A stretch of 63,290 nt of DNA, filler included, from Perkinsus chesapeaki ATCC PRA-425 (taxonomy: Eukaryota; Protista; Perkinsozoa): NCBI GenBank assembly GCA_013115145.1. It is 6 parts of 6 records of this genome, joined end to end, with 100 filler letters (N's around TTAATTAATTAA, not from the genome) between each part and the next. Parts side by side here need not be neighbours in the genome. Positions count along the whole stretch, not along the records: positions 1 to 28,088 come from JAAPAO010000482.1; positions 28,189 to 39,308 come from JAAPAO010000859.1; positions 39,409 to 56,580 come from JAAPAO010000687.1; positions 56,681 to 59,373 come from JAAPAO010001540.1; positions 59,474 to 62,091 come from JAAPAO010001562.1; positions 62,192 to 63,290 come from JAAPAO010002205.1. One strand, given 5' to 3'. The translations under genes and the position numbers were made by a program. Below are positions 13,995-63,290 of the stretch, one piece after another. A model generated the notes under the pieces. The model did no database searches, was not told where the DNA came from, and saw nothing but the letters and a program-made list of their open reading frames with translations. Numbering within the stretch: the stretch's first letter is position 1; every line of letters starts with the position of its first letter.

Positions 13995-14016
13995 GTCACT
14001 TCAAGTGACTCACTTG
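13995..14016. other. 7-8-7 inverted scar (8-mer GTCACTTG)
   Basis: GTCACTT + CAAGTGAC + TCACTTG, perfect. Confidence 0.8.
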
Positions 14017-14097
14017 TGCCTCTCTGTGAGCACTATTCTGTACGCTAGCCTATCTGGTCAAGTGTGAAGCGAAGGGCAAGGGCAAGGCGAGGTGTAT

Positions 14098-14580
14098 TTG
14101 GTTATGAACAACCTCATGGCACGATGGGCGGTGGCCTTCAGGACTCTACAGTTTGCTTCAACTGCACTCGCATCGGACACATCAGCCCCGTTTGCCCCCA
14201 CAAGCTTAACGCAAATTACCTTCGTATGCCGTAGACAAGCGGGTATACGAACGTAAACCGGTTTGGTCTTGGTATGTGACATCGTTTTACACTAAAGATC
14301 CGGCTAAATATGTTCCTACTACTTATCCGAATCAGCAACGGATAAATTTTGATACTGTGTATTGCAACGCTGCTGCTGAATTTGACCCGCTGTTGCGTAA
14401 GGAGATTGTCCTCTATTGTATCTTGCGTGTTAATTGGGACACGCAAGATACCCCCTTCATCCCCATGAGTTGAAGTTCATTGCAGAACACTACTGCATTC
14501 TCGGCACTGTAAATCAGTGTGTTGATCTGAGAGATTCTTTCTGGAAGTTTCCAACTGAAACTCTGCTTGCATTCACAAGA
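14098..14580 (+). mobile_element. Decayed retrotransposon fragment (gag zinc knuckle plus RT-like motif)
   Basis: CFNCTRIGHISPVC (CX2CX4HX4C) at 14154-14195. VDLRDSFWKFP...LAFT at 14521-14577 resembles the RT xDLxxAFxQ...TAF motif. Stops lie between them. Confidence 0.55.
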
Positions 14581-15409
14581 TGAACTTCACCTGGTCCAGC
14601 TCGGTTCAGCCGTCTTAGCTCGGGAAATTTTGGATGTTAAAATCGATCGAATGATGGATTGGTCACATTCCTTCCTTCTCAGGGAGTGTCGCTGTCGGTT
14701 CGCCGTGTGGATGAAGGCGTTCTCCATGCCAACCTGTGGCGAGCGCAACCGCTGATTCGTCGCACTAACATCAACAATCATCTCATTCGCAAGCCGGGGC
14801 CGCTAGTGAGTGGATTGTTTGAGTTCTACGGGAGCTCGATGAGTTTGAAGGAGGTAAGGGTTTCTCCTAGCAGAACATAATTGACTTTCTCTTCTTTTTG
14901 TACATATCCACCGATATGGTGGGCTTCCGAACTGCGTATCTGGTTAAATCTGATGGAGACGTTTAAATGATATAAATGATAAACGATGAAGATATAAATT
15001 ATATCTACTTCTCTAAGGAAATATAAATTTTCAGCTGTTTTGCTAACATGTGTTTTCAGCGGCGGTGCTTGCTTAAAACATGTTGCTCCGTTTTTTAGCT
15101 TCTTACTACTGACTTGAAGTTTGGCTCTGGAAGTCTTTTGAAGACATACTCAATATTCTGCATAGGGAATATATAGAGAGATACCCATTGATTGTCCCAC
15201 CTTAGTTGTTTCTGATTCAGAAAACAGAAAACGCGACACGTTTTCTGCAACAGTTGCAAACGGTTAGTATACAGTGGAGGTCTCCCTAAGCCTCTTTAGG
15301 ACGCTTTTGCAACATACTGTAGCAGTTGTACGTTGTACCAGCGATTACTTGAATCAGAGCTCTGCTACACGTTTGAAATTTCCTGATTTTCTACTAGGTC
15401 TTCTCTAAC

Positions 15410-18400
15410 ATAGAGTTCATCAGGCATATGTTACCTTATTCCAAGCACCATTTGCGAGGGTATCTCGGCCTGGTCAGAAGGGCATAGAAGAAGATAGAGA
15501 CGAGGAAGCCGAGAACTTGAATCCGTTCAAGTTGGTGAGTTCTTCTTGGCACAATATATCGGAGGCGTTGTAAGGAGCTGGAAATTTTATTAGGAAATTA
15601 TAGGTTTTTGGGATAGTAGATTTTTGGATTGTATTTCAGTGAATTGTCACAATTCAATTGTAGAAGAAATGAAGTAAACTCATCGCCGAAATGAATGAGG
15701 CATCATTTTCATTTCGGATTGATATAATGTTTAATGCGTGAAGGTTTCTTACGTTGTCACGTACAAGCTGGGCCACGGTGGCAAGGCCACCGAGCTCCTC
15801 GGTAAAACATCTTAGTTAAATATTTGTTTCTGTTCAGTTTTTGATTTTGCATGGAATAGTGATCATTTTTCATTTTATACATATCATTTCTCCATCGCAT
15901 CTGATAGCATGCCATTTTCTTGCGCCTCGAGAGCTAATCGGTAGAATTTTTCATTTTTTAGCTCCGTCTGCTGGTCGAGCCCGTCGCCGAAACTGACATA
16001 CTCACCTGCACGCCAATTGCCGCAGTTTTCCAAGCCGCTCAAGGATCTTCAACAAGTGGTACGTTGAGAAAGATATTTGAAAATCGATCAAGAGGGTGCC
16101 GCGCGCTATTTAAACTGCTGGTGTGGTTTTAGGTGCTAGCAATAGGGCTAGACGGAGAGCGAAATCAATTTTTAGATCAGCCCTGAATGAGGTAAGAAAT
16201 CAGCGGGGGGGGACGCTGCGAATTTCCTAGTGGGAAAGTGCGTTCGTTTGCCCAAGGCCGTGAACGGACTCTGTGTCCCGCTCACCGGGCGGAGTTGTAA
16301 TGTATCAAAGACTGTGATTCTGAAGCACTGATCCATAGTATCCCTTTGACGATATGCAGAGTTCGATAGCGAATAAAGCTCGTTATAAAAAACCGAATTT
16401 AATACTTTCACGGGGAGCATGAGACATTCAACCACGCAAAATGTAAATTGAATTAATCTTCAGTTGGTTGCAAAGTAAACTCGATTCCTGAATACTAGCC
16501 TAAATGGTGTAGTTGGATCATCCAGATCGGATGAATCGTAATCTTGTATTAGGAAATTTTCGAAATGTCTTCGAACGAGGTGAAGTGAGTTTCTGCGAGG
16601 AAAAACTGGAATTCTTCAGCGATTCTTTCAAGCGTAAAATGTTCGTCATTGTCAGAAAAAAGAGCAACAAAACAAGTTCTTGACCACGCTAGCGGCCGTC
16701 ACGAAGCTCTCGCCTTCCCGGTTCGCATCGGTTGGCAGCGTCACAGATCAAGTCGAGCCATCCTTCCTCGCCGCGAGAAAAACTATCAGTAGACCTGAAA
16801 TAAGCGATTTGACTTACAGCAGGGTAAGCTGGTGTTTTGGCGGAGAGATTTCCGTTTTACAGATTTCGCCGCATTTGGAGGTTTGCCTGTTATCACCGAT
16901 ACTCGTTGATGACCTTGTCGAGAAGAATTGCGGTCTGCTTCTGGATGTATCCGAGGGAACGATAGGCCAAATTGAGGTGGGGGCATTGTTGGGGTGTCGC
17001 TATGTTTGGCCTACCTATACACTGTATAATATACATATCCCCACGGCTAGTAAATTGCAAGCTCTGGTCTGCTTGATTTTGGCCGATCAAATGCTTTTCC
17101 TGAGTAATGCCTAACACGTCAAAGAAAGATTACCGTTGCGTTCCTGATTTGTCGGGCTCAGTCAATGCTTGCTTCTGAAACGGTTGATCGATTTAGTGTA
17201 GGGTTTTGTGAAGTGCACAGCGAAGATGAGCCAGAGGCTTTTTGAGAGAGCGCGATACTCGTCGTGTTGTTAGTTGATCGAGAGTCTCGCCTTCTTATCA
17301 TTTTCCGGTGGAAATCTCTCATCTTGTTCCATGGACTTCCGAAGGCCGGGCTTCCGTGGCCGATATCAACATCTAGGGGGTTTGCATTATAATACTTCAT
17401 CATCAGGACCAAGATGCCTTGAGACGTCTGGTGTATTATCGACTTCAACGCATGGAGGAAGAACTCCACGCTGGTCGGGCCTTGCACCTCGGAATTTTTT
17501 CCGATGCCGAATTTTCCGGAATAATTTCGATCACAGCGGAGCGAAGCAAACGAGGATTACTCAAGGATAAATTGACAGTGAGATTAGCGGACGCTATAGC
17601 TGGACCAGGTGGGCTGAGAAAATGGAAGATTTGATGAGATTGCTACATTTCAGGAGCTGCCACTGTGTGTTTGGGAACAAGCCTGTCTCGATGGGGTCCT
17701 TTGCTTTTTCCGAACTCGGAATTCGAGGATCTAGCGACAAGGCTAAGAATGTTCACATGTAAGCGTCACGCGCCGCGAAATTCGGGAGAGATGGTGTCTC
17801 TTCGTTCTTTTGGGAAGCTTGTCTTGTGGCAATTTGTGAAGATGAAAGAATCATGGAATTGCGAGAAAAAATGTATTTCGTCCAGATTTTCTTCGGAAAA
17901 TTGCGTGAAAATCCAATGTCGGCGGGGAATTATGGGAAATAAGATTTTCCCGCGAGCTACTTCGTGAATCTGTCAGATTCGAGTGGCCATAAGCAAGTTG
18001 TTTTCGGTGATCCGACTTCCTTGGGTGGAGATGGTTATTACGATCTGCCTCCTATGGCAGCTAGACTGGGGCTGATGAGGAGTAGAGAAAACTTCACCTT
18101 CGATGCTTCCAGGCTGGCATTACCTGGACCGCCGCAGGTGAGATCTCCTCTCGAAAGGGATTTGCTCAATATTCGGATCCCCCAGTAAGGTTTATTCATT
18201 TAAAATGATGAAAAATTAAAAAATGGAAATTCTCTTTTGAACAACAGAACAATTCACGGCGGAATTATTCAGTCTCAAGAGTACAGATTCTGGAAGTTTC
18301 AGTTTGCGAGTTTTGTCGATTATGCCTTGTAGCCCTGACGCTCTTGCTATTCCTTGCAAAGATCTTTCTAGCACGCGGCTATTCAATAACTTCATTCCGG

Positions 18401-21400
18401 TTGCCTTCTTGGACGAGTCACTCAGGATCAGTCACCGTCATGTCCTTGTGTGTCCACTTGGCTATCTTTGCACTAACCGTGCTCCTACTTGGTCACCTAC
18501 TCCTGAGCGTTAGTTCCGGTTAACAGCACCCGAGGCCTTATTCGCTATGTGCCTCGAGGGCGAGTAGGTCGGCACCCGGTGCCATGCACCGGTCAGGCGC
18601 CCTGGAGAGGTGTCTGGCTCGGCAAGCAAGTCACACCTCTCAATTACACCTTCCCTTCCACCTACGACGTAGGTGGAAGGAAAGGTGGAAAAACTATTGT
18701 GTTGAACTATTGTGTGGAGAGTTCCAGTGCCTCTTCTCTTATTTCCGGCGTACATTTGTATCATGTCTTGCCAAGAAATATCGAGAAGAATGAAAAGTCG
18801 AAGCGACAGATGAATGGCAAGTGCTCAGATTCTGCACACTCACGGAAATGCGCGCTTTTTGTGAGTTGTCACGTGTCATTTTGCCATGTATATTTTCCAT
18901 TGTGTGGAGAGTTCCAGTGCCTCCACGATCCGCACGTCGTGCGGATCTCGTCCCGCTAGGCTCGCCCAAGCTGCCGGCCCCGTAGTTCGTGCACCTGCTG
19001 TTGTGTACGGAATCGCGTTGCTTTCTGAGTAATACCTATGGTTCTTATGGCTGTGGTATATCAAGTGGTTAAGGCCTATATGGACTACGGAAAGCTTAGG
19101 CGAAATGCGCGGTGCCTGAGATGCTTATACTCCCTCAATTAGTTGGACATATCATCCTGTGATGTGGGCGGACGGCGCAGTTTAGCAAGGATTGTGGTTT
19201 GGCTGCTCGTATTATCTTGACTGTGCTTCGCAAACTGAAAGTTGCAATCTTTTTATTATTGTTATTTTCTGCTGTCTTTGTAATAGCTGTGGTTCGTATG
19301 GTGGCTGTGGCAGTAGTAAAGTGTGGTAGTAGTGTGGTAGTAGTGGTAAATATATTGATAGGTTATCCCGCATTGATGATTGTAATGCGTTACGCAACTT
19401 GTGTTCCGAGTAGGAACTTCCTACTCACCTTTAGTGCTGCAATAGACACTGTAACATGACATCTGATATCCGTATTATTGAACAGTGGCCGTCATAAAAC
19501 CTAACTTGAGGGGAATTCCGAATCCTCAAGAATATGGAAAATTTCGTGGCAAGTGACAACTTGGTGGTTCATGCTTAGGAATATATTCTTATTGTAGCTT
19601 ATTTATTAACTTCTTCTCAGCTTCGAGGATCGGACCCACTCGAGTTTGTTGGTATAACTAATGTTGAAGGCATCGGCCATGGGAGGGACTGCTGGTGGTG
19701 GCCTATCAAGTAGGCTTAATCAAGCTCGACGAGCTTGTTGTTCAACGTCGTCTTTTGGAGTTGTGAGCCACTAATAATTGATTGAAACTTTTTACGGTTT
19801 AAGTTCAAAATTACCTCATTTTTCTTCTCGCAGTTGTATGCAGTGCGAAATTTCGCTGCCCACAATCTTTATTTTTCCCGTCGGATGTAAATTCCTATGA
19901 TTCTATTCTCTAGTATTTCTGCGAAGGTTCGATCCCTGCACATGTCATTTTTAGGCATTTGGGCTCGAGTGTCCCGAGCCTGGCGAACTCGTGGATAGCA
20001 CTTCGGGCGGCCAGAAAAAAGAAGATAAATGAAGATTTGGAGAAGTATGTTGGAAAATTTTCCGGATTTTTCCCGATTTTTCGGATTCAGCAATACACCT
20101 TTAGCTGCTGATTAGGAAGTCTTGAGGAGAGGATCAGATTTAGGGAATTCATTGTGAATTCGATTTTTCAAGTGAATTCGTTCGCACCTTTGGGGAGTTT
20201 CTTAAAGAATTGCACGAAGCTTCATGAATAATTACTGTGGAACAATTTTCCGAACATGAAAATTGGAAATGGAAATTTTTTTCTCTTCTTAATCAAGACT
20301 GGGTATCAAAATTTGGGCCAAGAAAAATTCTCGCGCGCATCGAAACTCTATTCTAACTGGGAGGGATGTCTGTCGTTGGAGCACTCGGAAATTCCCAGTG
20401 GAAGTTTTCCAATGTCTCTTTTTGAAATTCAATCGATTTCATTTCGTGTTTGCTGAAGATGAAAACCTTCGCTGTGTGAAAGGATATTTTTCAGGTTGAG
20501 AAACGATTGCCGGGTGGAAGAAAAATTGAACCAAGGTTTGTCAGAGGAATTCACGGAGTTGCTGAAAGATGCGGTTGAAATCGAAGGCGGCAAAGCTGAA
20601 TTAGTAACGACCCGCGAAGAAACAACGGAAACTTTATTCCGACTGGTGTAGAGGGTGGTTATCTCTGTTGCCCTTTCAGTAGTATTTTTGTTTCAAAGAG
20701 GAACATCGGATGTTAGGATGCTTAAGGAGGAATACATTGTTTATGTTTGGTAGTCTAGAAACTTATTATGTCTCTCCCGCAATGGGATTACGGGTAAAAC
20801 TTCCCGTGAGGAGAAACCAATTGCGGTGATTAGATTCGACTGTGTTTCCTTGATAAATTCTTTCAAATTTTCTCGAAGATTTTATGTAGAATGTTAGAAT
20901 TTATGTTTTTAGACTGACCCTGGAGCGGTGGACGAATCGAGCGGACGGTTGAGTGAGCACGGTAGGCCTCTGGTTCAATTCCTGGTTGAAGCATTCGATC
21001 AGATTCGACGAAGGGGAGCGAAATGAGTCCAGCTGCATTACGCGGTAAGATATATAGCCTAAACTGTGGAATGTTACCAACTTGAAATATCTGTCACTTG
21101 ATAAATTGTAAACTCAATTGAGCTTATAATTTATCAGCCATGAAAACCCCCGTTGTGGTGATGGAAGATGTTAAAATCAAGGAACGAAATTCTGCAAAAT
21201 TTTCATAAGCAGGAAAATATTTTTCAGAACGCTCCGCCCAAGAATTAGAGTGTCTTAAACAAGGCTGGTCACATCGCATGGAGGCCAGAACTTTCACACA
21301 GGAAGCCGATACGATGGAGGAAGCTGCTGCAGAAGGAACTAGAATGCTGAGCAGCATCACTACGAAAATCAGACAAGTAGATACATTAAATCGATCAACT

Positions 21401-24400
21401 GGGCGAGCGCTTTCCACATTGATATCAGATACGAGAGGATTGTTCAAGTAGGAAGGTTGCGGCGGATATGGCGAAGGAGTTGGCAACGGCGGCCAAGAGG
21501 AGAAATGAGTGAGAAAACTCGGACTTTGTTTTTTTGTGATGGAAAAAAAGGGGAAAATATGGAATTTTCGGTGGAAAAAAGTTAGCATGATTCCGGGATC
21601 ATTTTGGGCATGACGGCTTCCGCCGGCTTGCGTCGGAAAGTGAGAGAATTTTCAGAAATTTCATTTTCAGTACTGCGAAATACACCGCTCTGAAGCAAGC
21701 TAAGAAAGAACGCCGCGAGGAACTGGAGAAATCCGAGCATGCGAGAGATGAAGCGATCGCAGGTTTGTTGTGCATGCGTGCAAATATTAGAATTGTTCTT
21801 TATTCAGAGCTGAAACAGATTGAAAAAGAGCTTGGGGAGGCACGCGCGAATATGACCGAGGCACGAAGTCGGGCTAAAAAACATATCGAGTGCGCAGTGG
21901 CGTGTGAAAAAAGTGGCGATCATGCGATTGGGCGGGTGAAGGTTGAGCAGGAGTTAGAGCGAGTAAGTCATTTCTTTAGTCGAATGGCTTTCTTGAATTT
22001 TTGCAACTTTGATTGCCCGATATCGCCAAGTGGAATTGCTTGATTGCCTCAGGCCAACGATGAGCAGAATATATGTCACAGGAAAATTGAGGCGTTGGAA
22101 AAGGAGAAGGCTGAGGTTCAAGATGATATCAATAAGAAGGAACAATTGCTAGGTGTGTGTCGTTGAGGAAAATTAGGAAAATTTTTTTAACTTTTCTTGA
22201 AACCGGAAAATTTCTGAATTTATTCTTCAATACATTTTCTAAGAATACCCTTTCGGAATTTTCCGGGAAAAAAACCGAATCTTTCTCAACATTGTTCTTC
22301 CGTCGAGCTTGTTGAGAAACTTAGCTCTTGAGCTTCCCAATACTGTGCATCCTGCAGATCGCCTATCGACGGAAATCCTGTCCCTACCACCGACCTCGAG
22401 GATAAGGAGCGTGCATCAAGCTAAGATACGCTTGAATAGGCAGGAGGTTGCAGAGGTGAGTCGCGAGCCTTTTTTCGGTGAATGACGTCCTGGCGGGTAT
22501 ATAGCATCATCTTAAATTTATAGTGAATTATCATCTGCTAATCATATTGCGATCTAAGACTCATCTGCCTCAAGGCTCACGGCTGTGTCCTACTCGGGCC
22601 CCTGAAATGTTCCTAATACGGAGCGATTATAGAAACTACGTTGATTGAAAATACGTTCCCACGGCCTCAAGGCCTAGCATGAAATGCATCCCTCCGGGGA
22701 CACTTGAGATTACTCAATGACAGTGGGAGATCTAGTCATTTTTGTTAGTTTTTTTTCTCCCCGGATCCTGTAAAAATCAGTGATTAAATTAGAGTAAATA
22801 TGACAGTGGGAGAATGATTCTTATTATGAAGTGTACGAAGCTTAGAAAGCAAAACGGAAAGCGTGCAGGGAATCTCTATTGAAGATCCGATGTAAGATAT
22901 TCAGATATTAAAGATTTATTAGTGCGATCTTTATTAAATCGCACTATAGAGATTCTGTGAGTCACAGAATCAGGGGGACCTACTGTCGCATGATGCCACT
23001 TGCATATTACAGTTATCATCAAATAAAAAGTTGACGGAATCCGGCAATGATTTTTTTCTCAGGCCCGTCAGAAATTTGAGGAGCTTGAAGCGAAGGTGGC
23101 AAGTGAACAAAAACAGGAGGAGAAAAGCAAGAAAGAGATAACAGAGTTGAAGGAGACGCTGGAGAGGATTGAGAGATTTAGTCATAGGAAGAAGTTTGAA
23201 GACAGGTAAGGAATCGAAGGACTTCGTTGGAATATATGCTAGAAGTGTAAATTAGGTTATCATGTGAATCTATTTATTATCATTACTTTACTGGGGATCG
23301 GAAGGATCTCCTTAGATAATCACTATTGAATTTATGAACGCCTTTGCTGTTAGATAAATAAATTAGTATAACTTACGTTCAATTTAAATCAACAACTTGT
23401 CCAACAAAGTTCATCCGCACTCAATTTTCGTTGTCAATTACTTTATGTGATTTTCTCGATCTGGTTCAGATTGTCTATCATGGAAAAGCTGAATCTTTCC
23501 TCGGCGTCGCTGAAAAACCTGAACCAGAAAATTGCGCAGGCAAAGAGTGAGTTGGAAGACATCGACGATCTGGCGGTAAGACTTGTCAGCACAGAAGGGC
23601 TTGATGGAATTGAGGAAGATCGGATTTTAGGCCCAGAAAAGATGGATTTTATGCTTCTTATTTCACTAGTAACATATTTCCTATCAAACTCCTTTCTATT
23701 ATATCTCCTCTTCCGTATCACTAGTAACATATTTCCCATCAAACTCCTTTCTATTATATCTCCTCCTCCGTATCGCTAGTTGCGTATTCCTGTGAGATAT
23801 GGTGTCTCAGGTGGAATCGAAGGAGCTTTTGGAACTTGTTGAGGAGGCGCGAGTAGCTGCAGAGACTTTTATGCTTTATCCTGGATCCGACCGAGCGTAA
23901 GGGGAAATTTTCGACGGAAAAAACTTTTTCTCGATTTTTTGTGTGATTTCCAACGGATTTTTTCCACTTCGCGCAATTCGTTCCAGTTCGCCAAATCGAA
24001 TCGGTAATGACTGATGTCGTAAGTCTAACGCGACTTGTCTGGTGTCTGGTCTATGTGTGATTAGCTCAGCTTGGAGTATTAGGGAAAATAAAACAAAATA
24101 ATATTAGTTCTGCAGCAGAACTAATATTATTTTCAGCAGAACTTCTGCTAGAGTGGACAGGCTTTGTCATATTATTGTCTACTCGGCACACTCAGTCCAA
24201 TAAGACAGGAAGTCCTGTAAGTTGTCATTTTCATACAGTGCTCCAAATTAATTTGGAATATATCCTTAAAATGTCGATACGCGATAACTAGAGTGAGTTT
24301 AACCATGAAATCAGATTATGTCATACTTAGCTATATTACATTCGTTGTCACAGAACTTCTCGACCGTTTCATGCCAGCTGGTGACAATATGGGCGAGCGA

Positions 24401-27400
24401 GTTTTTCGCCCGTGCCAGCTATGCCAAATTGAATTGGAATATGTGCTAAATCACCTTCCTATTCAACAACTCGGTACTATTGAACTTTTGAAAAGGAACT
24501 AAGACACTCATGTAATCATGCTAAGAGTACTAAACTAGCTCAAAAGTCAATCGTACACCCTTTTCGTTCCAGAACAGCACAAAGCCGCTTCCACATAGAC
24601 TCCGTGCATGCAGCTGGCGACGAAATCCCTGCTCAACTCGGCCCAAGCTCGATGGACAGCTTCCTCTAGCTCTCTCACCGTGTTGTATGCAGCTTGGCCG
24701 GGCTTGTAGACCATTCTGACCAGCTGTCCCCAGACGTTTTCGATGGGGTTAAGGTCTGGGGACAGTGATGGCCACCCGCAAGTGTCCACCCCGTGCGCCT
24801 CTAACCAATCCTTTGTACTACGAGAGGCATGACAGGATGCATTATCTTGCTGGAAAATCATTCCCTCTTCAAGAACTGGCAGGAGTTTATCGTGTAGCAT
24901 CTCCTGATACCCCTCCGAGTTCAACCATCCACTTACGGTAGTGAAACGCAGCTTGCGTCTACCAACTATCGCACTCCACACTATCAGAGATCCACCACCG
25001 AAGCTTCTCCTGGATCTAAACCAACTCTGGTCCACCTGGGATCCTCCAATAAGAATAGACCCCGGCGAAACAGTACGCCTTTTTGTCTGCAGGGCCTGCA
25101 GACTGGCAAACCAAGATTCCTCACCAAATCTTCGCAGCTGCTCCCAGGAACCTTAATCAGTTCGCGAATAATGCGCCTTTGGAGGTGTTTGTGAGCTTCG
25201 TGGGAGCTCCGCGTTTGGCACTAGACTCCCTCGCAAAGGATTGTATGATCTTACTGACGGCCGATTGTGTAATTCCGTGGCACTCGGCTATTTCCTTTTG
25301 ACTGTACCTCTTCTTTCCTTCCGGGCTACGCGCCTCGCTCATGGCTCGGATAAGAGACTTTTTCTCGGGGCTACTGTTCTTGTTTGATCCCCTGTGCGGT
25401 TAAGCTATGCCACAATTTTATTAGGCAAAGCTGGCACGGGAGGAAAACTCGCTCGCCCATATTGTCACCAGCTGGCATGAAACGGTCGAGAAGTTCTGTG
25501 ACAACGAATGTAATATAGCTAAGTATGACATAATCTGATTTCATGGTTAAACTCACTCTAGTTATCGCGTATCGACATTTTAAGGTTATATTCCAAATTA
25601 GTTTGGAGCACTGTAGAAACTGTTTCTGCTCTCTAACTCGAACTAGTATCACCGGTGTAGTTAAATCACACTGGGGTTAGTTCAACATGCTTGTATATGG
25701 AAGCCTTCCATTGGAAGGTCACACACGTGATAGGCAGGTATCCGAGGCTGCCGATTCCTCGTAGTGTCAATACGAGCTTGTATAACCACACGGGGTATTT
25801 CCAACACTCTTGCCATCGTGGTATGAACAACAATAAGAAGAACAACTCATAGCTGCTCCATTTTTTATTATCATTCTTCCTCTGGCAAAATCACTGATAG
25901 GAGATGTTTCCCAGACGAGCTTGGGAATTTCCTATATTGACGATTTTTTGTGACTTTTTTGCGTTGCAGTATTCCTTTTCAGTTACAGTGAAGTGGAGGA
26001 TTCCAGAAAGGGGGGCGACAGGTTCGTGAAGGATATTTTTCCCTGGACATTTTCACTTCAGTTTCTGTCCATCGCTTAAAAGGAGTCGATCGGTGGAGCG
26101 TTGGTAAGAAAATTGATCGGTGAAATTTTGATATTTTTCAGGTATTTTTGCGACGAGTGGATGCCTTTGGAGTTGCCTCACATATTGAGGCAAGAAGGGA
26201 TGGAGTGCATCGCTCCGTTCGAAGTAGGTGGTTTTCTTGGGTGAAATTTAGTTTTTTGGGGAAAATTTTCGAGATTTTTTGGGGAATTTTCGGAAATTTC
26301 TGCCATTTAACTTCGGAAGGTTTTATACCGTGAAATGATGCGCGAGAATTAGCAAGTATTAAAATTCAAATAGTGAGTATCTTTTCTTTCATAAGAGGCA
26401 TGCTTTAACCTATGATATTTTTACCTAGGTTGAGTCCATTGACGCTAGGAAGCGGCCTACTCTGGTCGTTTTTTATTCGCCGTGGAATAAGGAATGCATC
26501 AGGAAATCGGATGACATGCTGCGAATTGGAAAGGAGCTGAAGGTGAGACTCTACACAGTGTGACGCGACAGTTGAACGGGAATCTTTTAATAATGAGAAA
26601 GTTGAGAATCTTTTTGGAATGAACCGTTTTTACCGAATTTTCGTACCACCGCTAACATGTGCTGAGGAATACCGTAGTATAATTCAGAGTTGGCGATGAA
26701 TACTTTTAAGAAAAATTTAATTTCCCCAGCTGAAATGTTCTGAGATTTAGCCCCCTTCACCCAGAATTTTAAGTCAGTTGCCTCATGACCTCGTGCCATA
26801 ATTCCGGCATATTTTACTTATCGAAAAGCTGTGACACTCAGAGTCTAATATGTCTAGTGACTAGACATATTAGCAGATTTGCCGTCACTGTCTGTGAGTG
26901 GCAGCGTAGCGGCGTGCTCTGCTCGTCAGCTCGAAACGCAGCAAACGGCACATTTTAGGCGGCGAGCTCAGTATGAGCTCCATTGTCGGGAATGGGAGAT
27001 AGCGTCCCAGGAGGGTCACCTTTCATACGTCATAAAATACCGGAAGGAGGGTTTCCATGTTTCGGCAGCATGAGCGACCAAGCCGAATCCCATGGCTGGA
27101 ATGCCGCGAACTCAGATCGATGTTGAGAGCACTTGATGTCCGTGTACGTTCAAGACATTATCGTGCGTCAACCCGGACTAGCTCAAGGAGTCTGTCGGGC
27201 CGAATCCTTAAAGGGGACCATACCCGCCCTTTGGCGGGTAAAGTGACTTCACAGGCAGGCGTCAAATGGAGTTATTGGTGATGAATATTTCTAGTAAAAA
27301 CGTCATTCTCCCAGTTGATCATCCTCATTATTGAATAATATAATGTTATGTATTACAGTAATTATACAGATGTACCATGAACTCGGAATGAAAAGGAAAA

Positions 27401-28030: not shown

Positions 28031-28088
28031 GAATCGCATAGTTCATATAACCGCAAGGCCGATGAGCTCGTTGGACCGCCGGTGGGCA

Positions 28089-28188: not shown

Positions 28189-29145
28189 AATTCCCTATAC
28201 GACCGTCTTTGTGTGTTACAATTAATAAAGCTCAAGGTCAGTCACTAAAAAAAGTAGGTGTATATCTCCCACAACCAGTCTTCAATCATGGTCAACTTTA
28301 TGTAGCTGCCTCAGTGAGGCAGCCTCACGCGTGGGAGATCCGGCAAACATTAAGTTTGTCGTTGATCAATCCACCTATACATACAACACCAACACAAACT
28401 CTGCACGCAATCCAACTACTACTCAAGTACTCACAACAAACGTCGTTTATCGAGAGATTTTGTCATGATCAATCATAAGCATTTCTCACCTAGCGTCTTT
28501 TGCTACTTACGCATTACTACAACACGTTCAACGTATTACGTTGTATAATTACTTAAATTATTTATTAAGTTCTTTGACAAATTCTTTGCTATCTGAGTCA
28601 GTGACTCAGAGTCACACAATGACCACTTCTGTTGTAACTATAGTATAGTTACTATACGAATGTCTGCCATGTATAATCTGTACTTTACTACTGTTAATGT
28701 AGAAGCCAGCTCATGAGTTCCTCTAGACCCTAGATTTGTCGCTACACTCTATTCCAGCGCTATTCGTCGCTTTCCACCTCACTCTGGAGTCTCGAAAATA
28801 GATACGCAAAGTTGCTACTGATCTACATCACAAACCTCCCGCCTGCTTCGTCGCGCTATGCACGGTTAAATTCTATTGCTACAACTACGTCAACAACAAC
28901 CACTTGGAGCCGGATAGATGATTTACATGTTCTTCTTTACATATTCTCTGTTCTTGCTATTCACTTGAATCATTCACGTATGATGGGTAGTGTAACTCAG
29001 GTGTACATTATTTCGTGAGTGTTGAATTAGTGTAATTCATTGAATTAATGCGTACCACGTTATAACACCATCTACATGAACACTCTTCTACTACATCAAA
29101 TGGGAATACTGTATAACACTGGAGCGGAGCGACGGGTTCCACTAG
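28189..29145 (+). mobile_element. Helitron 3' end (Pif1-family helicase C-terminus, 3' UTR, putative CTAG terminus)
   Basis: [41 protein letters not shown]; after removing a 14-nt insertion it continues RVGD...[11 protein letters not shown] (stop 28466-68). A degenerate GC-rich hairpin at 29119-29135 is followed by CTAG|T at 29142-29146 (terminus less certain than the ORF). Confidence 0.8.
28594..28657. other. Two 7-8-7 inverted scars (8-mers TGAGTCAC and AACTATAC)
   Basis: TGAGTCA+GTGACTCA+GAGTCAC (28594-28615) and AACTATA+GTATAGTT+ACTATAC (28636-28657), both perfect. Confidence 0.8.
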
Positions 29146-29262
29146 TGAGTTTGGATATTATACCTACTTTTCCGATAAGTTGCAAAAATGAAAAAAGTGG
29201 CATTGGACGCGCCGAATGCGTGAAGGAACTCTAAGAGCGCAAGGTAGTGTAAGATTGGCATT

Positions 29263-37216: not shown

Positions 37217-38307
37217 GTTTTTCCGATTATTGTAATGTTATTCTGTTGAAGGAGTAATTTTGAGTTGAGAGTTGTCACATCTGACTCCCTTTGAAGCAAG
37301 GCTTTCGTGGCATGATGCATGAATCCTATTCCGAGCATTCCTAATACTAGGCTTCGCTCAACACGTAATTTCCTTTCGTTCACAAGAGTACTCTTGACAA
37401 AACCCTAAACCGTGATGAGGAGTTGTATACCTTTCCACCCTAATGGAGGTTTAGTCAATACAATAATGTATTCGACTTCGATGATCCATTTACTCTTTTA
37501 AGAGTTATTGGGTGTGGGTATTGCTGAGCGGTTTAACGAGATGTTCAGTTCGTTTTCTAGACAATTTACCGACACTCAATGCTGTAAAGTTCCTCTAGGG
37601 AGCGAATCGACAATATAGGTGTAGATCGTCATCATTCTCATCAGAGGAAATGATTAATAACCAGTACCGGTTATAAGCGGTAAAACCAACACGTGGGCCA
37701 CAAGAAAAATGACAAAGAAAGTCCGGATACATCAACTCTCATCGCGAGACTCTCCCCAGTGCACGCGATGCCGAAAGCGGAAAGGTTGCGAAAGCTAGGT
37801 TGGGCTAGTCTCAATTTTTCTCAGGAACACCCCGTGTGCCGAGTAATGAAAGGCAGACTACAGTTTCAACCGACAAAACGCGAAAACGCGACGATAACCG
37901 AAACCGGACTCTCGAGACGCAACGGAAACCACAAGCGGAAGCAGCCAATACAGCTGGATTCTGGCGATGTGACCGCAAGCAGTGGCATACCACCTTGTGA
38001 CTCTCGACCAAGTCTAGTTTATTATCCCGCCAACGACGTCCCTGATGAAGAGCCTCTGATTCTAACTGGAAACTGAGTGAGTGTGAGTCATAAGGACGCT
38101 CATGACTCAGCCATTACACTAGTGCGGCGCTAGTAGTGCCATCGGTGAGGGACAGCAGTATCGGTCACCCACGTGACGGGATCTTCAGGGCTTCACGTCA
38201 CCCGTCATTACCAATGATACCCTGGCTGCAGAGCTGCACTCGTCATATATAAGCAGTTGGCCAATTCAGCTTGATCGAGAGTGTAGCATTCGTGTCGGTT
38301 GACCGTT

Positions 38308-39444: not shown

Positions 39445-40533
39445 ACATAGCCTATTCTAATAAAATGACATTATCTACTTCTTTGCAAGAATGCCTTTGA
39501 AAACTACAAAAAACCGCTACTTTAGCCTTGCGATGCCAACTCTCTTCATGTTTAGCTGGGACTCCAGATAATTGGCAATTATCGTGAAGTCTGGTAGTTG
39601 CTATATGTCCGTTTGAGAGGTTGAGGAGATGAACAAATAACGTAGATCTCCAGCCGTCGGGACGTAACTCTCGTGAATGATACTATTAGTATCATACTAA
39701 TGAGCACATATTCAGTCGTTTATAAGATGAAGTTCAGGATTGGCATGTACTTCCTATATTTACACCCATCTCGGCTTCATGTTCAATCTTCACTCACTTT
39801 TTCGTGGATCCACCACCTGCTTTTGATATGTTGTCGAGTAACTTGTTTAGTTCTGGCATCGGCATGCTTTAGCATTCACAACCAGCATGGGCTGTTCCGT
39901 TCCGAGCTGGATGGCGTTCAGCCCAACACAGGGACAAGTTCTCCCGATGCTCTTCTATAGAGAGACGCATCACCACCAACAATTATTATTATTTCTCCCT
40001 CCCCGCTCGGTAGTTGCACCCAGACCGCCCTGGTTTCAAGTATAAAGCAAAGATATTCTCCTTGATTGGCGGCAGAGAGTGGTCCATGAGCTGCTCCAAA
40101 AGCGAGGGGTAGTTTCTATCAACATCAGGTCCCATGCCGAGCAGCGCATGTGGGCTGTTTCCGAGCGAGGGGGACTAAAGCCGGAAATTAACCCAAAGTC
40201 AATGTCCTTGAGGATTGTCCTTCCAAAACTGACGGCTCCCGAGGGCTCGAATACTGTAAAGTGTGCTACCCTATCATATTCGATGGTTGTTTGTTGAGCA
40301 GGCTTGTAAGGCTTGAAAAGACATTCTTAACACTTCAACACAAATAGCTTATCACAAGCCCATTTACCAGCGATACTCTTATAATGGGTATTCCATACCC
40401 AGACCATATAAGGAGAACCCGTGTCTACATGTGCATTCATCTCACCCGTCAACTACTACGGTTGTTGAGAGGCCAAAACCACGAGGGCTTTCACTGTCTA
40501 CGAAGCCGCATTCAAGGGGATGTCCCAGAACAT
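39445..40533 (-). pseudogene. Pepsin-like (A1) aspartic protease pseudogene
   Basis: VDG..MNAHVDTGSPY (DTGS at 40414-40425), IDFGLI, HALLGMG...PSLLEQL...IKENIFALYL, IIVGGDASLY, a second motif degraded to NIGS, and RIGY at the end. Multiple stops and frameshifts. Confidence 0.8.
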
Positions 40534-51107: not shown

Positions 51108-51153
<46 letters not shown>

Positions 51154-53386: not shown

Positions 53387-54579
53387 TTAATATAATCTTT
53401 TTTTCTTTCCTTTATTAAATGCTTTCCATCCAGCAGTTCTTCTATCAAAGCTTTTAACTTCAGCATCCTTAGCTGCCACGAAGTTAGGATCATTAACATC
53501 TACTGCTTCACGTTCAGCTTGAGCATGCTAAATAATAGTAACATATAACCGTATGATTATAGGACATGATTTATACAGACTGCTCAAAAATGTCCAGCGC
53601 TGATCTGAATGTGATGTAGATCGAGTCTGAGGATGAAAATGGTAGCAATGGATCAGAAATTTGTTGCTCCTTCCATTGGTGTACCCAAAAAGGCGATTTT
53701 TTTAAAACTTCGCCGACTCCGGGAGGCTCAAGCACTAGTCGAAAGTGCATACCATCCTGATTACAACGGTGTCTTGGATGATGTCAGATTCGATCAAGTT
53801 GCGGAGAAATGCGAGATTAAGGTTCGATAATTTATGTTGGGCAGCCGCCATAACTTTCCTAATCCCACAGGGGATAGGGACCGTGCGCAGGTGAGTCGTA
53901 TACGAATGGAAAGAGCAACAAATTTCTGATCCATTGCTACCATTTTCATCCTCAGACTCGATCTACATCACATTCAGATCGGCGCTGGACAATTTTTCTG
54001 ACCAGTCTGTATATATCATACCATTATTATTATTACCTTTCTTTTCCTCTCTATCTTTTTCCATTTCCTTTCATCACTTTTTGCCTTTGATTTTGCCTCA
54101 ACTTCTCTTTTAAACACTTCTTCTATATTATTCCATATCCTTTCCCTTTCCCCATATGTTGACGCTTTCCACCATCTATACAACCATTCTTTAAAAAGAC
54201 CTTAAACCCCATATTACTATTACTTCCATGAATACTCCTCCTCCTCCTCCTCCTTAGCCTTCCTCCTCCCTTTATCCTTATCCTTCCTTCTTCCTTTACC
54301 CATAACATCCATTAACCTTTTAAATGCTTCCTCTGCTCTACTATCATTACATTTATCTGGATGTACCTACTACTACCCCATCAGATGCCATCCTGCCCCC
54401 CTTATTAGTACCAATAATGCTAACCTTCTAAAGTTAGCTTTACATAATTCTTCTTTATCCTCACCATTAGCATTGATGCATAACATTGTATCCATATCAT
54501 TTGTATTTAATATATGTCTTATAGCATCTTCTGATGATGATGACTGAGGTAGTAAACTATTCATATTATTACTTCCCAT
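53387..54579 (-). CDS. J-domain (DnaJ/Hsp40, DNAJC8-like) protein, multi-exon
   Basis: KANFRRLALL|VHPDKCNDSRAEEAFKRL (HPD motif), charged middle region, and a last exon ending FDRRTAGWKAFNKGKKKRLY*. Confidence 0.85.
53576..54009. mobile_element. Non-autonomous Tc1/mariner-type MITE (434 bp) in an intron of the J-domain gene
   Basis: TA at 53574-75 and 54010-11. Inverted repeats of about 110 bp (53576-53684 and 53898-54009) start CAGACTG. Confidence 0.93.
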
Positions 54580-57959: not shown

Positions 57960-58900
57960 GCCCTCGCGGGCAGATATACTACGCCCTTGCGGGCATACGA
58001 AAAAGCCCTTGCGGGCGAACCAAATCACAGAAGGCACCGACGAGCATCGAGATGCTGCATCAGGGCCGCGAAGAGCCGATTGAAGGCCTTGCGGCGCTTC
58101 AAATCAACAATCATCTTATAGAAATGATAGGGGACACCACCTTTAACGCGTTTCCTGGCATGCTCTAGGAGCGGACAGGAACGCAGGAGGTGCCTTAAAT
58201 TCCCTATCGGGGCTCCAGTGGAGCCGCTCCACAATCACACTCCGGAGAGTTGATTACCCCACATCTGTGAAGATGTGCTGGGGTTGGAGCCCTGCCAAAC
58301 ACTACAGCACTACCTGCTGGGGTAACCTCCCCACGACTCCACAGCCTCGCATGCGAGGCGCAGTAAAAGAAGTCGTTGCAGGCAGTGCCTAAACCAGCCC
58401 GTTTCTCTGACCACCACTTGCGCAGTGCCAGGAGCCCGGCTTCGGCTTGATATCGCCGGAGGGTCCTCACACTGATTTCCGTCTCCGAGGAGACTTCCGT
58501 CATGGAGGCACCCTTGGCAGCCAATTCATCAGCTCAGTCATTGGCAAACATGCCGCTGTGACCAGGTACCCAATGAAAGGTGACCTTGTCCGGGAGTCCA
58601 GCCAAGAGCAGAGTAATCTGCCTGGCCTTATCCCGCCGAGCTACCGTAGATCTCGACGACAGGATCTTGAGTACCGCCCGAGAGTCCGTGAAGACCTCCC
58701 AGCTTTCCTCTTGATCTGCCGCCGAGACAACCCAGCGGACTGCTTCCAGAACTCCGAGGAGTTCGCAGTCCGTAATAGTAGCGTAAGAGGAGAACTTCCA
58801 GCAGCCAGCGTGGAGCTCTACACCCTTACGGTATACCACCATGCCAGCGCCGGCCTTGCGGTCTTTGACAACCGATGTGGTCCGCACAGCAACGTCAATA
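57960..58900 (-). mobile_element. 5'-truncated non-LTR retrotransposon (RNase H-containing LINE, I/Ingi/Tad/R1-type): RNase H, CCHC and 3' UTR
   Basis: AGAG...CELLGVLEAV...VFTDSRAVL...FHWVPGHSGMFAND*ADELAAKG (in-frame TGA), then SPECDCG / HLLRSCP split by a frameshift. Confidence 0.85.
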
Positions 58901-59228
58901 ATAGCGAAATATGATCTCTAGACTACTGCGGTTTCCGAGACGACTTCAGTCCCACCCGCCCATAGCTTGTGTCATGTATGTTGTGAGCAACTGCGAGCTT
59001 CGTCCCCCCTAAGGTTGCCTGAAATGAGATCTAATTTCCCAAGAAAAGTTGCCTAAGATACGTCCCTTGTCTGGTGGATCTGCTTGAGCCTTCGTACCAG
59101 CATCCGCGGTGTATGATATATGTACAAGAATAGTGTATTACGCATACATGAACGATTGTCTGATTCGTTTGATTTTCTTGTTCGCGGCGCATATCATATC
59201 GTGGCGTATTATGTAGGTGCCCCTGCAA

Positions 59229-59252
59229 CAGTGGCGTAGCTGGGGGGGGGCG

Positions 59253-59294
<42 letters not shown>

Positions 59295-59313
59295 CGGCCG
59301 GCCGCCCCCCGCG

Positions 59314-59356
<43 letters not shown>

Positions 59357-59373
59357 GGGGGGGGGGGGGGGGG
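59229..59373 (+). mobile_element. Possible left end of a non-autonomous hAT-like element, truncated by the gap
   Basis: CAGTGGCGTAGC followed by a G-rich tract with GGGGCGGCCGGCCGCCCC. Resembles CAG(G/T)GGCG-type hAT termini from recollection. The other end is absent and the G-run length is unreliable. Confidence 0.4.
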
Positions 59374-59473: not shown

Positions 59474-61408
59474 ACTCCCACCAGAAAACGTGGCAAATCC
59501 TCCTAGACCCGATAAGCAAGCATCCGAAGCAACCACAACATGGTACTGGATCGAAACATCAACGAACTTGCCAACGTAGAGAATAGGCAAAATGAGTCGT
59601 TTGTTCTGTAAAATTGTCAGCCAAAACCTCGCGACCTTTGCAGTCTTACTTGTCGGAGCTATATGTAAGATGCGCAAGCCGCGGGCATCAAAAATCGATA
59701 ACAACGAGTAAAACGGTTGTAAAAAGGATTTAAGATAAGGGCAAACATTACATATGAACAAAAGCTGCCCAGTTATCCGGGCTATAGAACGACCCGTACA
59801 ATAATGCTCCGATAGTAAAGTCATAAGGGAATTGCTAACTTTAGAAATGATTTCACGTTTTGGAGAAATAGAAATCGTAAAATCATTAAGGGATAACTCA
59901 TATCCTATATATGTTAGCGAATCAATATTAAACTGACACTTTTTCCATGACAACGATACTCCCAAAACCCTCCACAACAATAGAGTTATACTAGATGCAT
60001 AAGGATATACAAACGAAGGAGCTAATAACAAACCATCGTCGACATAAATAAAGAAACAATGAGGAATGCCAGCTAAATAAGTATGCAGCAGCTCTCTCTG
60101 CAGTCTGCTTATGCATGCAGCCAATCTGCACCAATGATAAGGTGCGACTTTAGTGCCAAACGGCACAGCGGCATGTTCATAATAGTGATGGTTCACCGAA
60201 GTTGATAACCGGAATCGTTCGGATTCTCGAACATAAATATGTCGGAAGGCAGACGATATATCGAAACTCATGAAATGAGGCTGTAAATCTTCTTTGCGAT
60301 GCCCAAGGGACATCGAATGATCACCACAAGTCGTCGAACACTTTGTTCCCGATCGCAATTCTTCTGAAATTGCGCATAAACAATCTTGCGTTACCCGTTG
60401 CAAGTCCTGCAAGCGGGGTAAACTCACCGTTTCAGAAGGTCGCATGCGAGCGTTGAGGTGGTTCCTCCTGTAATCTTCTACTATCCTAAAACGAGAGGAT
60501 AAGGGCTCACTAGATCCAGCTATAGACGACTTCTTTTCCAGTAACGCCATACGGGCGAAAACACGTCTCGGATCCGCTGCCTCGACGTTAGTAATTTGTC
60601 TCATCCTTCCAAGCTTAACTTCGTCCTGTATCAATTCCTCAGTGACCGCAGGATTATTCTCAACGCTCTGATAATTAGCACGGAATCGCAATCGAAGCTC
60701 TTCTAGAGCTACTGCCTGGGCGTCTTTGGAATAAGCTGGGAAGAGACCTGTTGGTTCCAGAGGTTCGTCTATCCCAAGTGAGACTCCGGAATCAATTTCA
60801 TGAGGCAAACTCGTATCAAGATCTCTTAGGGATTGTATGAAGGCCTGCAGAAGTTCAGGTCTCAATGGTGAACCACATTGAGATTTACGACCCGAACAGC
60901 CCAAAAGACAACATAGAGAACGACGACAGTGCTCAGCCGCTTCTTCGAACTTTGTATCAAGCCTTTTCAGCTTGTCAAGGGATGGGTGACCCTTGATTGA
61001 CTTGAGTAATTCGGGAAGGCCGAAAAGTGCCATCGACTCCTCAAAAACCTCTAGGATGGGAAGTGACTGGTCTCTCGATGATGAACATACGAATTCACTC
61101 GGGAGAGGAGCTCCAACCCCTGTCCCGTCACGGACCTCCTTGGAAGACTGCTCTCTTACTTTCTCGATGCCGTTATGCAACAATAGATCGACATGTCCCT
61201 GAATCATCTCATCATCTGGCGCTTCCCATGGCTTGCCAGTAGCTTGATATGGCACGTAGTCCGGACGAAGAAAAGTCCTAGGGGGGCTATGTATCTGAGC
61301 CTTCTCCCTCCTACGGGCAGAATACCTCTTCTTCTGGCGGAGCTTTGCAGCTGTCGAACGACGAGATCTGTATGGCATTAGAAGAACAAGTGTAAGAGCT
61401 AAAGACAT
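59474..61408 (-). CDS. Reverse transcriptase-RNase H polyprotein (3'-truncated by the gap)
   Basis: About 645 stop-free codons: FRIVEDYRRNHLN, FDISSAFRHI, VPFG...PYHW, YVDD, LTYIGY, ITGQLLF...FLQPFY, and RNase H VASDACLSGLGG. Confidence 0.93.
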
Positions 61409-61534
61409 GTCTACAATACATACACGCTTATACTAACACCAACATTATTAAGTTACCGAATACAGTTAATATGCAAGACTGCAACTTGTAATGTCAGCCT
61501 AGCGAACTACCATTGGCGACTACTGAGAACACTC

Positions 61535-62191: not shown

Positions 62192-62683
62192 GTGGTGGTA
62201 ATGCTGAGTCAAGTTATACCGGCTTCTCCACGGATAGGCTAAGGCCTCCCGTGGGCCCTTCACCATCAAGCTCATGATTTTCGTAAGGGAGATACCTCAA
62301 GTTGGAGAAGTCGGATAATAATAACTCATGTGGTATTGTATAAGGTACCTATCCCTCAAAGCCTCATTAAGCCTTCTACCATAGCATTTCAGCAATATAT
62401 CGAAAAACGCACAAGTTGCATCCTCACGTGGTAAGACTGGCTAGGTAGAAGAAGACTAACAGTTAACCATCGTATACCTAGTGAATTTTGAGGGGCACCC
62501 CGTCCGCTGCGACAGGTGGGACACCAGTGGAGTCACACCACCATAGTCTACGGTCCGTAGACGATCAAGACCATCACAGTTAACGCGCGATGTGCGTTAA
62601 TCACTGAAATGCCATTTCATTGTCGCGGTAAGTTGGAAATTTGCAAACCGAGTTCACGGAAGTGTCTTCGGCCATCGTTTTAG

Positions 62684-62734
62684 CGGTTCGCTATTATCTA
62701 TGTTACCACTGGTAACATAGATAATAGCGAACCG
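62684..62734. repeat. Perfect 25-bp-arm palindrome with a 1-nt centre
   Basis: CGGTTCGCTATTATCTATGTTACCA-C-TGGTAACATAGATAATAGCGAACCG. Confidence 0.97.
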
Positions 62735-62890
62735 TATACCACTGGTAACTTACCAGTACAGCTGGAGATTCATTCGTTGGGGTTTCAAACTGCTAGTGTT
62801 AATGCTCTAAACTAACAAGCGCTGCCAGGGGCTCAATGGGAGCCCAGATGTGATACAAGTGTCACATCTAAGGACACATACTGCCATATT

Positions 62891-63082
62891 TTAGTGACAT
62901 ACTGTCGAAGATATCGTCACTAGGGAAGCTCGATAGAGAAATACAGACTGTTCGTTTGAAAATGACATTGAACATAAAATAAAGAACATACAACAACATA
63001 CAACAAAGAGGTTTGGCATCAATTCAAATCGGCGGCGCCAGCGAGGGTAAGCTACCGCGTACCGTTCTGAACACATGAGCAT
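62891..63082 (-). CDS. Possible first exon of a membrane protein gene
   Basis: ATG start with a hydrophobic stretch, LFVVCCCMFFILCSM; no family recognised. Confidence 0.25.
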   Translation of the reverse strand: MLMCSERYAVAYPRWRRRFELMPNLFVVCCCMFFILCSMSFSNEQSVFLYRASLVTISSTVCH

Positions 63083-63290
63083 TCTCTGCTTACCTCGAGC
63101 GGTGACACCCCCTGCGTGAGTGTGTCAGGCCTCGGCCTTCTCCTTGTAGGATATATTTGCACACCGGTGATTCCAATCTCAAATTGGCAATCTTAGTAGT
63201 AGCAAGTTGCTACTAGAAACTCGTGGCTAAAGGACAATACCCCCACAATGATACTCTCACTGACAAAAGCTAATGAATGTGGATAAAGGT

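Follow-up and report, generated by a model that had tools for sequence, protein, structure and literature searches.

What process leaves an eight-base word, its reverse complement and the same word again, with one base gone at each junction, time after time in the DNA of the shellfish parasite Perkinsus? The DNA analysed here (the window) is a 63 kb stretch of six contigs joined by N spacers, and the scar, as it is termed below, is a 22-nt X1-7 + rc(X) + X2-8 around an 8-base word X. The question has some general bearing, as excisions of DNA transposons are normally invisible without a known occupied allele, and lifetime transposition rates are therefore guessed from surviving copies. The answer favoured, at a probability of about 80%, is that the scars result from hAT-type excision in which both flank hairpins opened, 8 nt or more away from the tip, and annealed via the inverted target duplication. 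Each 22-mer is one 8-base word with 14 bases inserted, and likely marks where a hAT-type cut-and-paste transposon left its donor site and the break was healed.

Could the pattern be chance? A scan of the window for X1..k-1 + rc(X) + X2..k yielded 45 perfect matches at k=4, 6 at k=5, none at k=6 or 7, 8 at k=8 and none at k=9-13; the sharp k=8 peak that the first-pass annotation had predicted is thus present in the window, and with it the fixed 8-bp target length of a hAT footprint. Near-copies at k=8 comprise 9 with one substitution and 15 with two, and the chance model, 30 local second-order Markov simulations, gave 0 perfect, 0.07 one-substitution and 1.03 two-substitution matches. With all k=8 classes merged, and the two long-arm forms included, there are 31 separate sites. 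Perfect scars occur at 1 per 7.8 kb of the window (127 per Mb; 95% interval 55-251), much as the earlier figure of about one per 8 kb had it, any genome-wide density being an extrapolation from 63 kb, and the natural spacing of scars here is one every 2-8 kb. Perfect scars lie on four of the six contigs and aged or extended ones on a fifth, where the copies first listed lay on three unrelated contigs. A photolyase-based metagenome search for Perkinsus contigs returned 80 loci, best segments 35-58% identical and none Perkinsus-like, and these doubled as a real-DNA control; their 841,339 bases hold one perfect k=8 match, with a low-complexity A/T word, and four with one mismatch, while a second control of 62 further loci (421,138 bases) holds no k=8 copy at up to one mismatch. 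The small k=7 excess (6 one-substitution matches against 0.6 expected) is mostly A/T-rich. At k=5 there is also an excess, 6 perfect against 1.75 expected in the window, which is unconvincing: one of the six is inside a k=8 scar and the 841 kb of control DNA yields 39.

The geometry is equally narrow. Odd palindromes with arms of at least 7 number 45 in the window against 5.1 expected, and even ones 7 against 5.9; only the 6-1-6-1-6 arrangement is populated, with 10 matches, other loop sizes at core 6 having at most 1, and the two-base-spacer (7+2+7) footprint at k=8 has none in the window.

Perfect scars, which like all scars and palindromes here are given without strand, lie at 1829..1850 (X=CCGAGGAC), 13995..14016 (GTCACTTG), 25697..25718 (ATGGAAGG), 39679..39700 (GATACTAA) and 58211..58232 (GGCTCCAC) and, within a Helitron, at 28307..28328 (TGCCTCAC), 28594..28615 (TGAGTCAC) and 28636..28657 (AACTATAC). 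The five listed in the first-pass annotation are all real, with position and 8-mer correct, as are its one-mismatch copy at 63199 and its extended copies at 24095 and 62684; what that list missed was the perfect scars at 1829, 39679 and 58211 and many aged ones. Single substitutions mark the scars at 15641..15662 (GAATTGTG), 19403..19424 (GTTCCTAC), 28522..28543 in the Helitron (ATACGTTG), 38119..38140 (CTAGTGCC; the change is in the inverted copy) and 63199..63220 (GTAGCAAC), an adjacent two at 62520..62561 (GACACCAC at 62520, ACCGTAGA at 62540), and a weaker, low-complexity case in the AT-rich contig at 48006..48027 (ATGTTATT). An overlapping aged pair at 10772..10800, one member with two substitutions and the other with one, is weak and partly one long palindrome. 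The long-arm scars are at 24095..24149 (GTTCTGCT at 24107, with a palindromic run of 20 nt on the left, a single filler base and a run of 8 nt on the right) and 62684..62756 (GTTACCAG at 62702, with a run of 26 nt on the left, a short filler and one of 9 nt on the right). The classes of 0, 1 and 2 substitutions show graded decay. Scars sit in non-coding DNA: none of the 17 with at most one substitution is inside a long ORF, though such ORFs make up 17% of the window (p=0.04). A match at 12008, within a long ORF, was set aside as it may be chance.

In 8 of 10 cores each of the two loop bases complements the base that was lost, and in a ninth one of them does, the rule for a hAT footprint, where the terminal base is lost on each side and the palindrome is centred on its complement. 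The 8-mers are biased to GT..AC / nTnnnnAn, in a small sample examined post hoc, and so resemble Hermes and hobo targets, a likeness to hAT targets that had been foreseen. GT half-sites account for 12/32 against a 5.4% background (p=5e-8; post hoc), with the bias evident separately in the classes of 0, 1 and 2 substitutions (6/16, 5/18 and 6/30), and T2/A7 for 18/32 (p=0.001); a central TA, as TcBuster prefers, is found in 1/16. Complementarity runs 2 nt longer on 6 of 28 sides, a share that chance would put at 7.8% (p=0.02, post hoc), this extension being what annealing would favour, and since the long-arm copies retain both hairpin ends separately, they argue for two independent broken ends. 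Might replication template switching or snap-back synthesis have made short inverted triplications instead? The 2-nt inverted match beside X on those 6 sides could aid a return switch, and the filler of the 62684 copy looks templated. However, 16 of the 28 sides have no extension at all, and the fixed length, a loop of one base at each side, the rule its identity obeys and the GT..AC bias are all unaccounted for, making such an origin very improbable.

Which state came first can be asked of the Helitron, the 3′ part of which, at 28189..29117 (+ strand; right boundary approximate), matches Helraiser (E=1.2e-12) and carries four scars; it is multicopy, with a read depth several times that of single copy. 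In contigs of public runs X1, X2 and X3, which come from two studies, exactly 14 nt are missing at 28308 and there is a single TGAGTCAC at 28594, so that the empty alleles predicted earlier exist as sister copies for two of the four scars (28307 and 28594), the origin from a single pre-insertion 8-mer expected of a hAT footprint; the other two scars are shared. The frames flanking 28307 match consecutive parts of a homolog, P0121, and the region of the HGQLYV motif is unbroken in 49 of 52 homologs; as the scar, an exact +14 insertion, shifts the frame within this conserved helicase motif, it is the derived state. In an X3 contig from another copy all 12 gaps fall at 28602-28619, and the scars at 28522 and 28636 are both there; the latter is therefore, on comparison of these copies, likely older than those at 28307 and 28594. 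Two candidates in the repeat were rejected: one X3 contig has a 14-nt gap at 28929 that reflects a short tandem duplication rather than a scar, and a two-mismatch match at 28629, less scar-like in sister copies, is probably a shadow of 28636.

Are the scars in the organism or in the assembly? Read support, which had been anticipated, comes from 13 contig-1 sites and two Helitron scars that recur in contigs assembled from public reads. Contig-1 scars are present in them at 60-68x, identical to the window; X3 contigs match it exactly over 8900-18738 (with the 13995 scar), 23750-24293 (with the long-arm scar 24095..24149) and 25556-26915 (with the 25697 scar), and contigs of X1, X2 and X3, two studies again, over 37508-39265 with the 38119 scar. 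Such contigs show presence, not absence: for X1 and X4 near-identical contigs are missing over most of contig 1, gaps carry no meaning, and RNA runs X6 and X8 have no coverage over scars. None of the contigs from public reads shows the scar allele at 28307 or at 28594, as would suit a fold-back artefact of library or assembly, and the window itself may derive from X3. But an artefact would hardly decay in grades, avoid long ORFs and carry a sequence bias, nor would contig-1 scars then stand in read-derived contigs at that depth with no difference from the window, nor the aged 38119 scar be identical in runs of two studies; of the alternatives considered this is the most improbable. Since the window's single-base variants in the Helitron repeat are also missing from the X3 contigs, copy collapse is the likely reason for the unseen scar alleles.

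How would hAT-type excision give so uniform a product? For Hermes and Ac it is established that the flank forms a hairpin after loss of its terminal base. By the scheme proposed here an element would insert with duplication of 8 bp, preferring GT..AC / nTnnnnAn, as the bias of the scars and the single pre-insertion 8-mer at two sites suggest. On excision each flank would lose its terminal base and be sealed as a hairpin tipped by the complementary base, and the predicted loop bases are those found. Host enzymes may then nick each hairpin at least 8 nt on the 3′ side of the tip, as the 20- and 26-nt runs kept by the long-arm copies suggest, whereupon the unfolded 3′ tails bearing rc(X) and X would anneal over an 8-nt perfect match, excess tail being trimmed, gaps filled and ends ligated. 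The product would always be 7-8-7, since it is the duplication that fixes the register of annealing, wherever the nicks fall. Hairpin opening with joining through the inverted duplication, already put forward in the first-pass annotation as the source of +14 nt, rebuilds the 28307 scar and its flanks exactly. Long repeated hopping would leave fresh and decayed scars together, with selection purging exonic ones.

It was considered whether Perkinsus lacks classical NHEJ, and this was rejected: P. marinus, the nearest named relative, is scored 3/3 present for Ku70, Ku80 and Lig4 in an EggNOG-based listing (Table S1, PMC6635534), so that loss of NHEJ does not account for the uniformity. That Perkinsus, despite Ku and Lig4, repairs its hAT donor sites for the most part in a single manner, far-from-tip hairpin opening and joining via the inverted duplication, each excision writing a self-identifying 22-nt target record, is about as likely as not.

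Is the hAT label itself secure? As against other hairpin-forming transposases with 8-bp duplications it is a candidate assignment, likely on the present comparison. In the parts of PMC6900584, PMC3030943, PMC2803484 and PMC11226609 drawn on here, Hermes and hobo share flank-side hairpins, the 8-bp duplication and the nTnnnnAn target; Hermes sites listed in the portion of PMC2803484 used often start with GT or end with AC, with about 15/32 GT half-sites when counted by hand. A difference is that the cognate transposase was not found in the Perkinsus window: no Pfam hAT domain was found in the 262 ORFs scanned of 332 of at least 62 aa, the other 70 being those of the AT-rich contig, and tblastn of the window with 20 long ORFs from hAT-bearing loci gave no matches. 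Exact and relaxed scans of the window for TIRs flanked by an 8-bp duplication picked up nothing beyond low-complexity or Tc1-internal pairs, and an occupied allele (8-mer, element with TIRs, 8-mer) was found neither in the window nor in the read contigs covering 30 kb of it, which show presence, not absence.

That no hAT transposase was found in the window leaves room for the same chemistry by another enzyme, a MULE or other flank-hairpin transposase with an 8-bp duplication. Muta1 does form flank hairpins, with duplications of 8 or 9 bp (PMC5499845, in the sections consulted). However, MULE duplications span 8-10 bp and scars at k=9 or 10 are absent; Muta1 excision is mostly precise, over 90% so in yeast according to the same sections, and precise excisions are invisible to the scar scan. 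The scar bias also fits the Hermes/hobo motif, and of another family, Merlin (8-9 bp), P. marinus retains nothing but remnants without TIRs. We know of no flank-hairpin evidence for Merlin. A different enzyme is accordingly judged unlikely. The tally of about 30 scars to 0 occupied sites in 63 kb prompts the further thought that no element was ever present: a transposase-like or domesticated nuclease cutting with an 8-nt stagger, in abortive integration, might be followed by partial fill-in and self-ligation to the same two hairpins and then annealing, with, on paper, the same product. Fill-in would invariably have to halt a single base short at both ends, a base that hAT excision already removes by known chemistry; to our knowledge no such nuclease activity has been described, and the idea is highly improbable.

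The hairpin chemistry underlying the hAT reading is already textbook, which limits the surprise; it is the dominant, genome-peppering 7-8-7 form that was not found in the literature. In V(D)J coding joints, too, off-tip hairpin opening gives palindromic additions (P nucleotides), there without a shared target duplication and so without a fixed annealing register. In Ac/Ds footprints, studied in S. cerevisiae, Arabidopsis and C. albicans, the P-nucleotides form palindromes whose centre is the complement of the element-adjacent base; 85-100% of the joints in yeast and Arabidopsis show microhomology, and yeast arms reach up to 20 nt (PMC5873905, PMC1978519, PMC2921059, as far as the excerpts used extend). 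These footprints are, in those excerpts, varied, mostly short and from engineered donor sites, in contrast to the one long dominant product of Perkinsus, whose scars are natural and recognisable without knowing the element; that published TcBuster and Ac/Ds footprints are varied and mostly short counts against a uniform 7-8-7 under the hAT reading.

If Perkinsus does heal its donor sites mainly by joining hairpins through the inverted duplication, there would be thousands to tens of thousands of scar records per genome, far outnumbering elements and adding close to 1% of DNA across the genus; past cut-and-paste events could then be counted and dated without reference to any element, and nature would have supplied a read-out of hairpin repair in alveolates. 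Each scar is self-identifying, stores its target 8-mer and can be dated from the differences among its three copies, so that one assembly could serve to measure how often an element has hopped, which targets it prefers and how strongly insertions are selected against. Scars would also serve as strain and copy markers, are a source of frameshifts, one of them breaking a Helitron helicase, and point to how this parasite processes hairpin DNA ends. Two further features merit mention. A lone odd palindrome with 14-bp arms at 26845..26873 is a candidate one-sided hairpin product, and the one hAT-like terminus in the window, at 59229..59373 (+ strand), a candidate hAT-type element end with a putative relation to the scars, carries CAGTGGCGTAGC followed by G-runs and is cut by the contig end.

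The 22-nt 7-8-7 scars, X1-7 followed by rc(X) and X2-8 where X is an 8-mer, are a real feature of this DNA. Over the about 62.8 kb of six contigs to which all scar counts refer, a scan for perfect X1..k-1 + rc(X) + X2..k found eight at k=8, including the five reported in the first-pass annotation; k=6, 7 and 9–13 gave no hits. With substitutions permitted in any of the three word copies, k=8 sites with 0, 1 and 2 changes number 8, 9 and 15, where 30 local Markov simulations gave 0, 0.07 and 1.03. After merging with the two long-arm forms there are 31 sites, about one per 2 kb, and if each gained 14 nt, scar-added DNA is ~0.7% of the window. As controls, 841 kb of unrelated real DNA gave one perfect match, of low complexity, and a further 421 kb of such DNA gave no scar match. 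Odd palindromes with arms of at least 7 are in ninefold excess in the window, and even palindromes show no excess. The weaker signals at k=7 (6 vs 0.6 expected, mostly A/T-rich) and k=5 (6 vs 1.75 expected) are not convincing.

How strict is the form? When loop bases were left unconstrained, ten 6-1-6-1-6 cores were found, the only loop geometry populated in the window; the loop base complements the missing terminal base at both loops in eight cores and at one loop in a ninth. A general footprint search at k=8, allowing a spacer of any sequence up to 60 nt between X1-7 and X2-8, kept 12 of 148 raw matches, i.e., the eight perfect scars, the two long-arm scars and two short low-complexity matches; a 7+2+7 footprint is absent from the window by that search. 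The long-arm scars, at 24095 and 62684, have a left palindrome of 20 or 26 nt, a right one of 8 or 9 nt and a little filler between, which implies that two separately folded ends were joined.

Excision by a hAT-type transposase, proposed in the first-pass annotation, is the best available model and we put its probability at about 0.8; that some flank-hairpin transposase was responsible is more probable still. hAT transposases begin by cutting the non-transferred strand, and the flank is then sealed as a hairpin (PMC6900584). This break carries a one-base overhang (PMC2921059), and the complement of the flanking base lies at the centre of the footprints (PMC5873905); a further paper concerns Ac/Ds excision footprints (PMC1978519). 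From an 8-bp duplication, the left hairpin would read X1-7 then rc(X), with the right its mirror image, and opening of both 3′ of the tip would expose the complementary 8-nt tails rc(X) and X. Scripted, this +14-nt joining scheme regenerates the 28307 scar plus its flanks. A nick anywhere at least 8 nt from the tip would give one and the same annealing register, and this independence of nick position would explain scar uniformity; the long-arm copies would be cases where a tail was retained, and annealing in a competing 6-nt register would leave only one X, with no visible trace. Complementarity continues beyond X on some sides (6 of 28; p=0.02, post hoc), which weakly favours annealing. Loss of classical NHEJ as the cause is contradicted by Table S1 of PMC6635534, where Ku70, Ku80 and Lig4, together with XPF, MRE11 and RAD50, are listed for P. 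marinus, and so the position of hairpin opening is the likelier determinant of uniformity. On repair products, the excerpts of PMC8062965 and PMC2868825 added nothing.

The empty alleles that excision predicts, each with a single 8-mer, were found in sister copies. Nine public sequencing runs, two studies being represented, matched, and five cover most of 28189–38188. The first 0.9 kb of 28189–39308, a multicopy stretch, forms the 3′ end of a Helitron (Helraiser match, E=1.2e-12). At 28308 contigs of runs X1, X2 and X3 lack exactly 14 nt present in the window (the X1 piece has one other base difference in 246), and once gaps are applied run contigs have one TGCCTCAC there and one TGAGTCAC at 28594. 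The frames before and after 28307 align to consecutive parts of homolog P0121, which makes the single 8-mer the ancestral state and the scar a recent frameshifting insertion. Scars 28522 and 28636, also in X3's other-copy contig, are likely older. Counting against this, the scar alleles of 28307 and 28594 were not seen in any contig from the compared runs; the window's single-base variants in the Helitron repeat are also missing from X3 contigs, so repeat copies have probably been collapsed. On contig 1, X3 contigs over 8900–28088 show zero differences from the window across 13995, 25697, 24095 and the aged, substituted sites, and X3 may be the window's own source; no X1 or X4 contig covers the scar places there. 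Sample S1 is without near-identical DNA for 8900–28088 and has ~85%-alike pieces at its single-copy depth as well as a half-depth photolyase variant, 14% different (35693–37122), and X3 depth is 60–68 on contig 1 and 105–120 on contig 2; together this suggests very divergent haplotypes or polyploidy. The window's intronless photolyase shares 76% identity with that of Perkinsus marinus, 59% with that of P. olseni and 58% with that of P. chesapeaki, which places the organism in Perkinsus.

What was the source element? Searches of the window, with Pfam hAT domains looked for in 262 of 332 ORFs of at least 62 aa, found no hAT transposase, no complete element with an 8-bp duplication and no occupied allele. 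One contig terminates in CAGTGGCGTAGC plus G-runs, a hAT-like end (59214–59373); a second TIR-like word lies 3 bp away, on the opposite strand. In other organisms' DNA, ends of this type bound a hAT-coding element (L109) and an exact 8-bp-duplication element (L097), and also three 5-bp-duplication elements (L108, L114, L115), so that the end is only a hint of a hAT source. The 8-mers resemble hAT targets: T2/A7 is in 18 of 32 half-sites and a GT start or AC end in 12 (background 5.4%), in agreement with the nTnnnnAn preference of Hermes and hobo. The GT..AC bias, first spotted by eye and then checked per decay class, is present in every class. The nnnTAnnn preference of TcBuster (PMC3499496, excerpt) is seen in just 1 of 16 scar sites. 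MULEs have hairpin chemistry in common, but their duplications are of 8–10 bp, and Muta1 excisions are mostly precise (PMC5499845, excerpt). The Perkinsus DNA transposons found in the literature, Dada with 6–7 bp duplications (PMC3706591) and Merlin remnants (PMC8101967), are neither a good fit. Four genomes filed as bacterial each have 5–60 matches to the hAT dimerisation domain, which probably lie in DNA of a eukaryotic host.

In open full-text literature we found no account of natural genomes in which this fixed 22-nt form is abundant, and no mention of hAT footprints for Perkinsus. Isolated 7-8-7 footprints may well already be in print, e.g., in subscription journals or the classic yeast, Ascobolus and hobo footprint tables; new here are the evidence from empty alleles and polarity, the bias of the targets and the finding on NHEJ.

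Scars shun long ORFs (0 of 17 and 1 of 32 inside) and cluster strongly, with six sites in 1.1 kb at 62192–63290 and three in 140 bp at 28522–28657, for which local hopping or hot spots are suggested as alternatives; the AT-rich 17-kb contig has two. Lone odd palindromes outside scars, at 17 positions vs about 5 expected and with arms up to 14 bp, are possibly one-sided hairpin products. Other elements are a Tc1/mariner (24234–25615; 203-nt TIRs 96% alike, DDE_3 domain) with diverged copies in the runs, a small MITE-like TIR element with TA flanks (about 53575–54010; 99-nt arms 95% alike), two copies of a ~55-bp repeat (23655–23785) extremely abundant in every DNA run compared there, a 653-aa reverse-transcriptase ORF (59474–61432) and an RNase H remnant (58537–58917). 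A repeat multicopy in X3 (26886–28088), starting CACTG directly after a 14-bp-arm palindrome, we take to be possibly CACTA-like. A tRNA-Pro(CGG)-like sequence (12069–12141) lies within a 298-codon open frame. Marine metatranscriptome RNA contigs start at 31649 and 34820 with a leader similar to the dinoflagellate/Perkinsus spliced leader.
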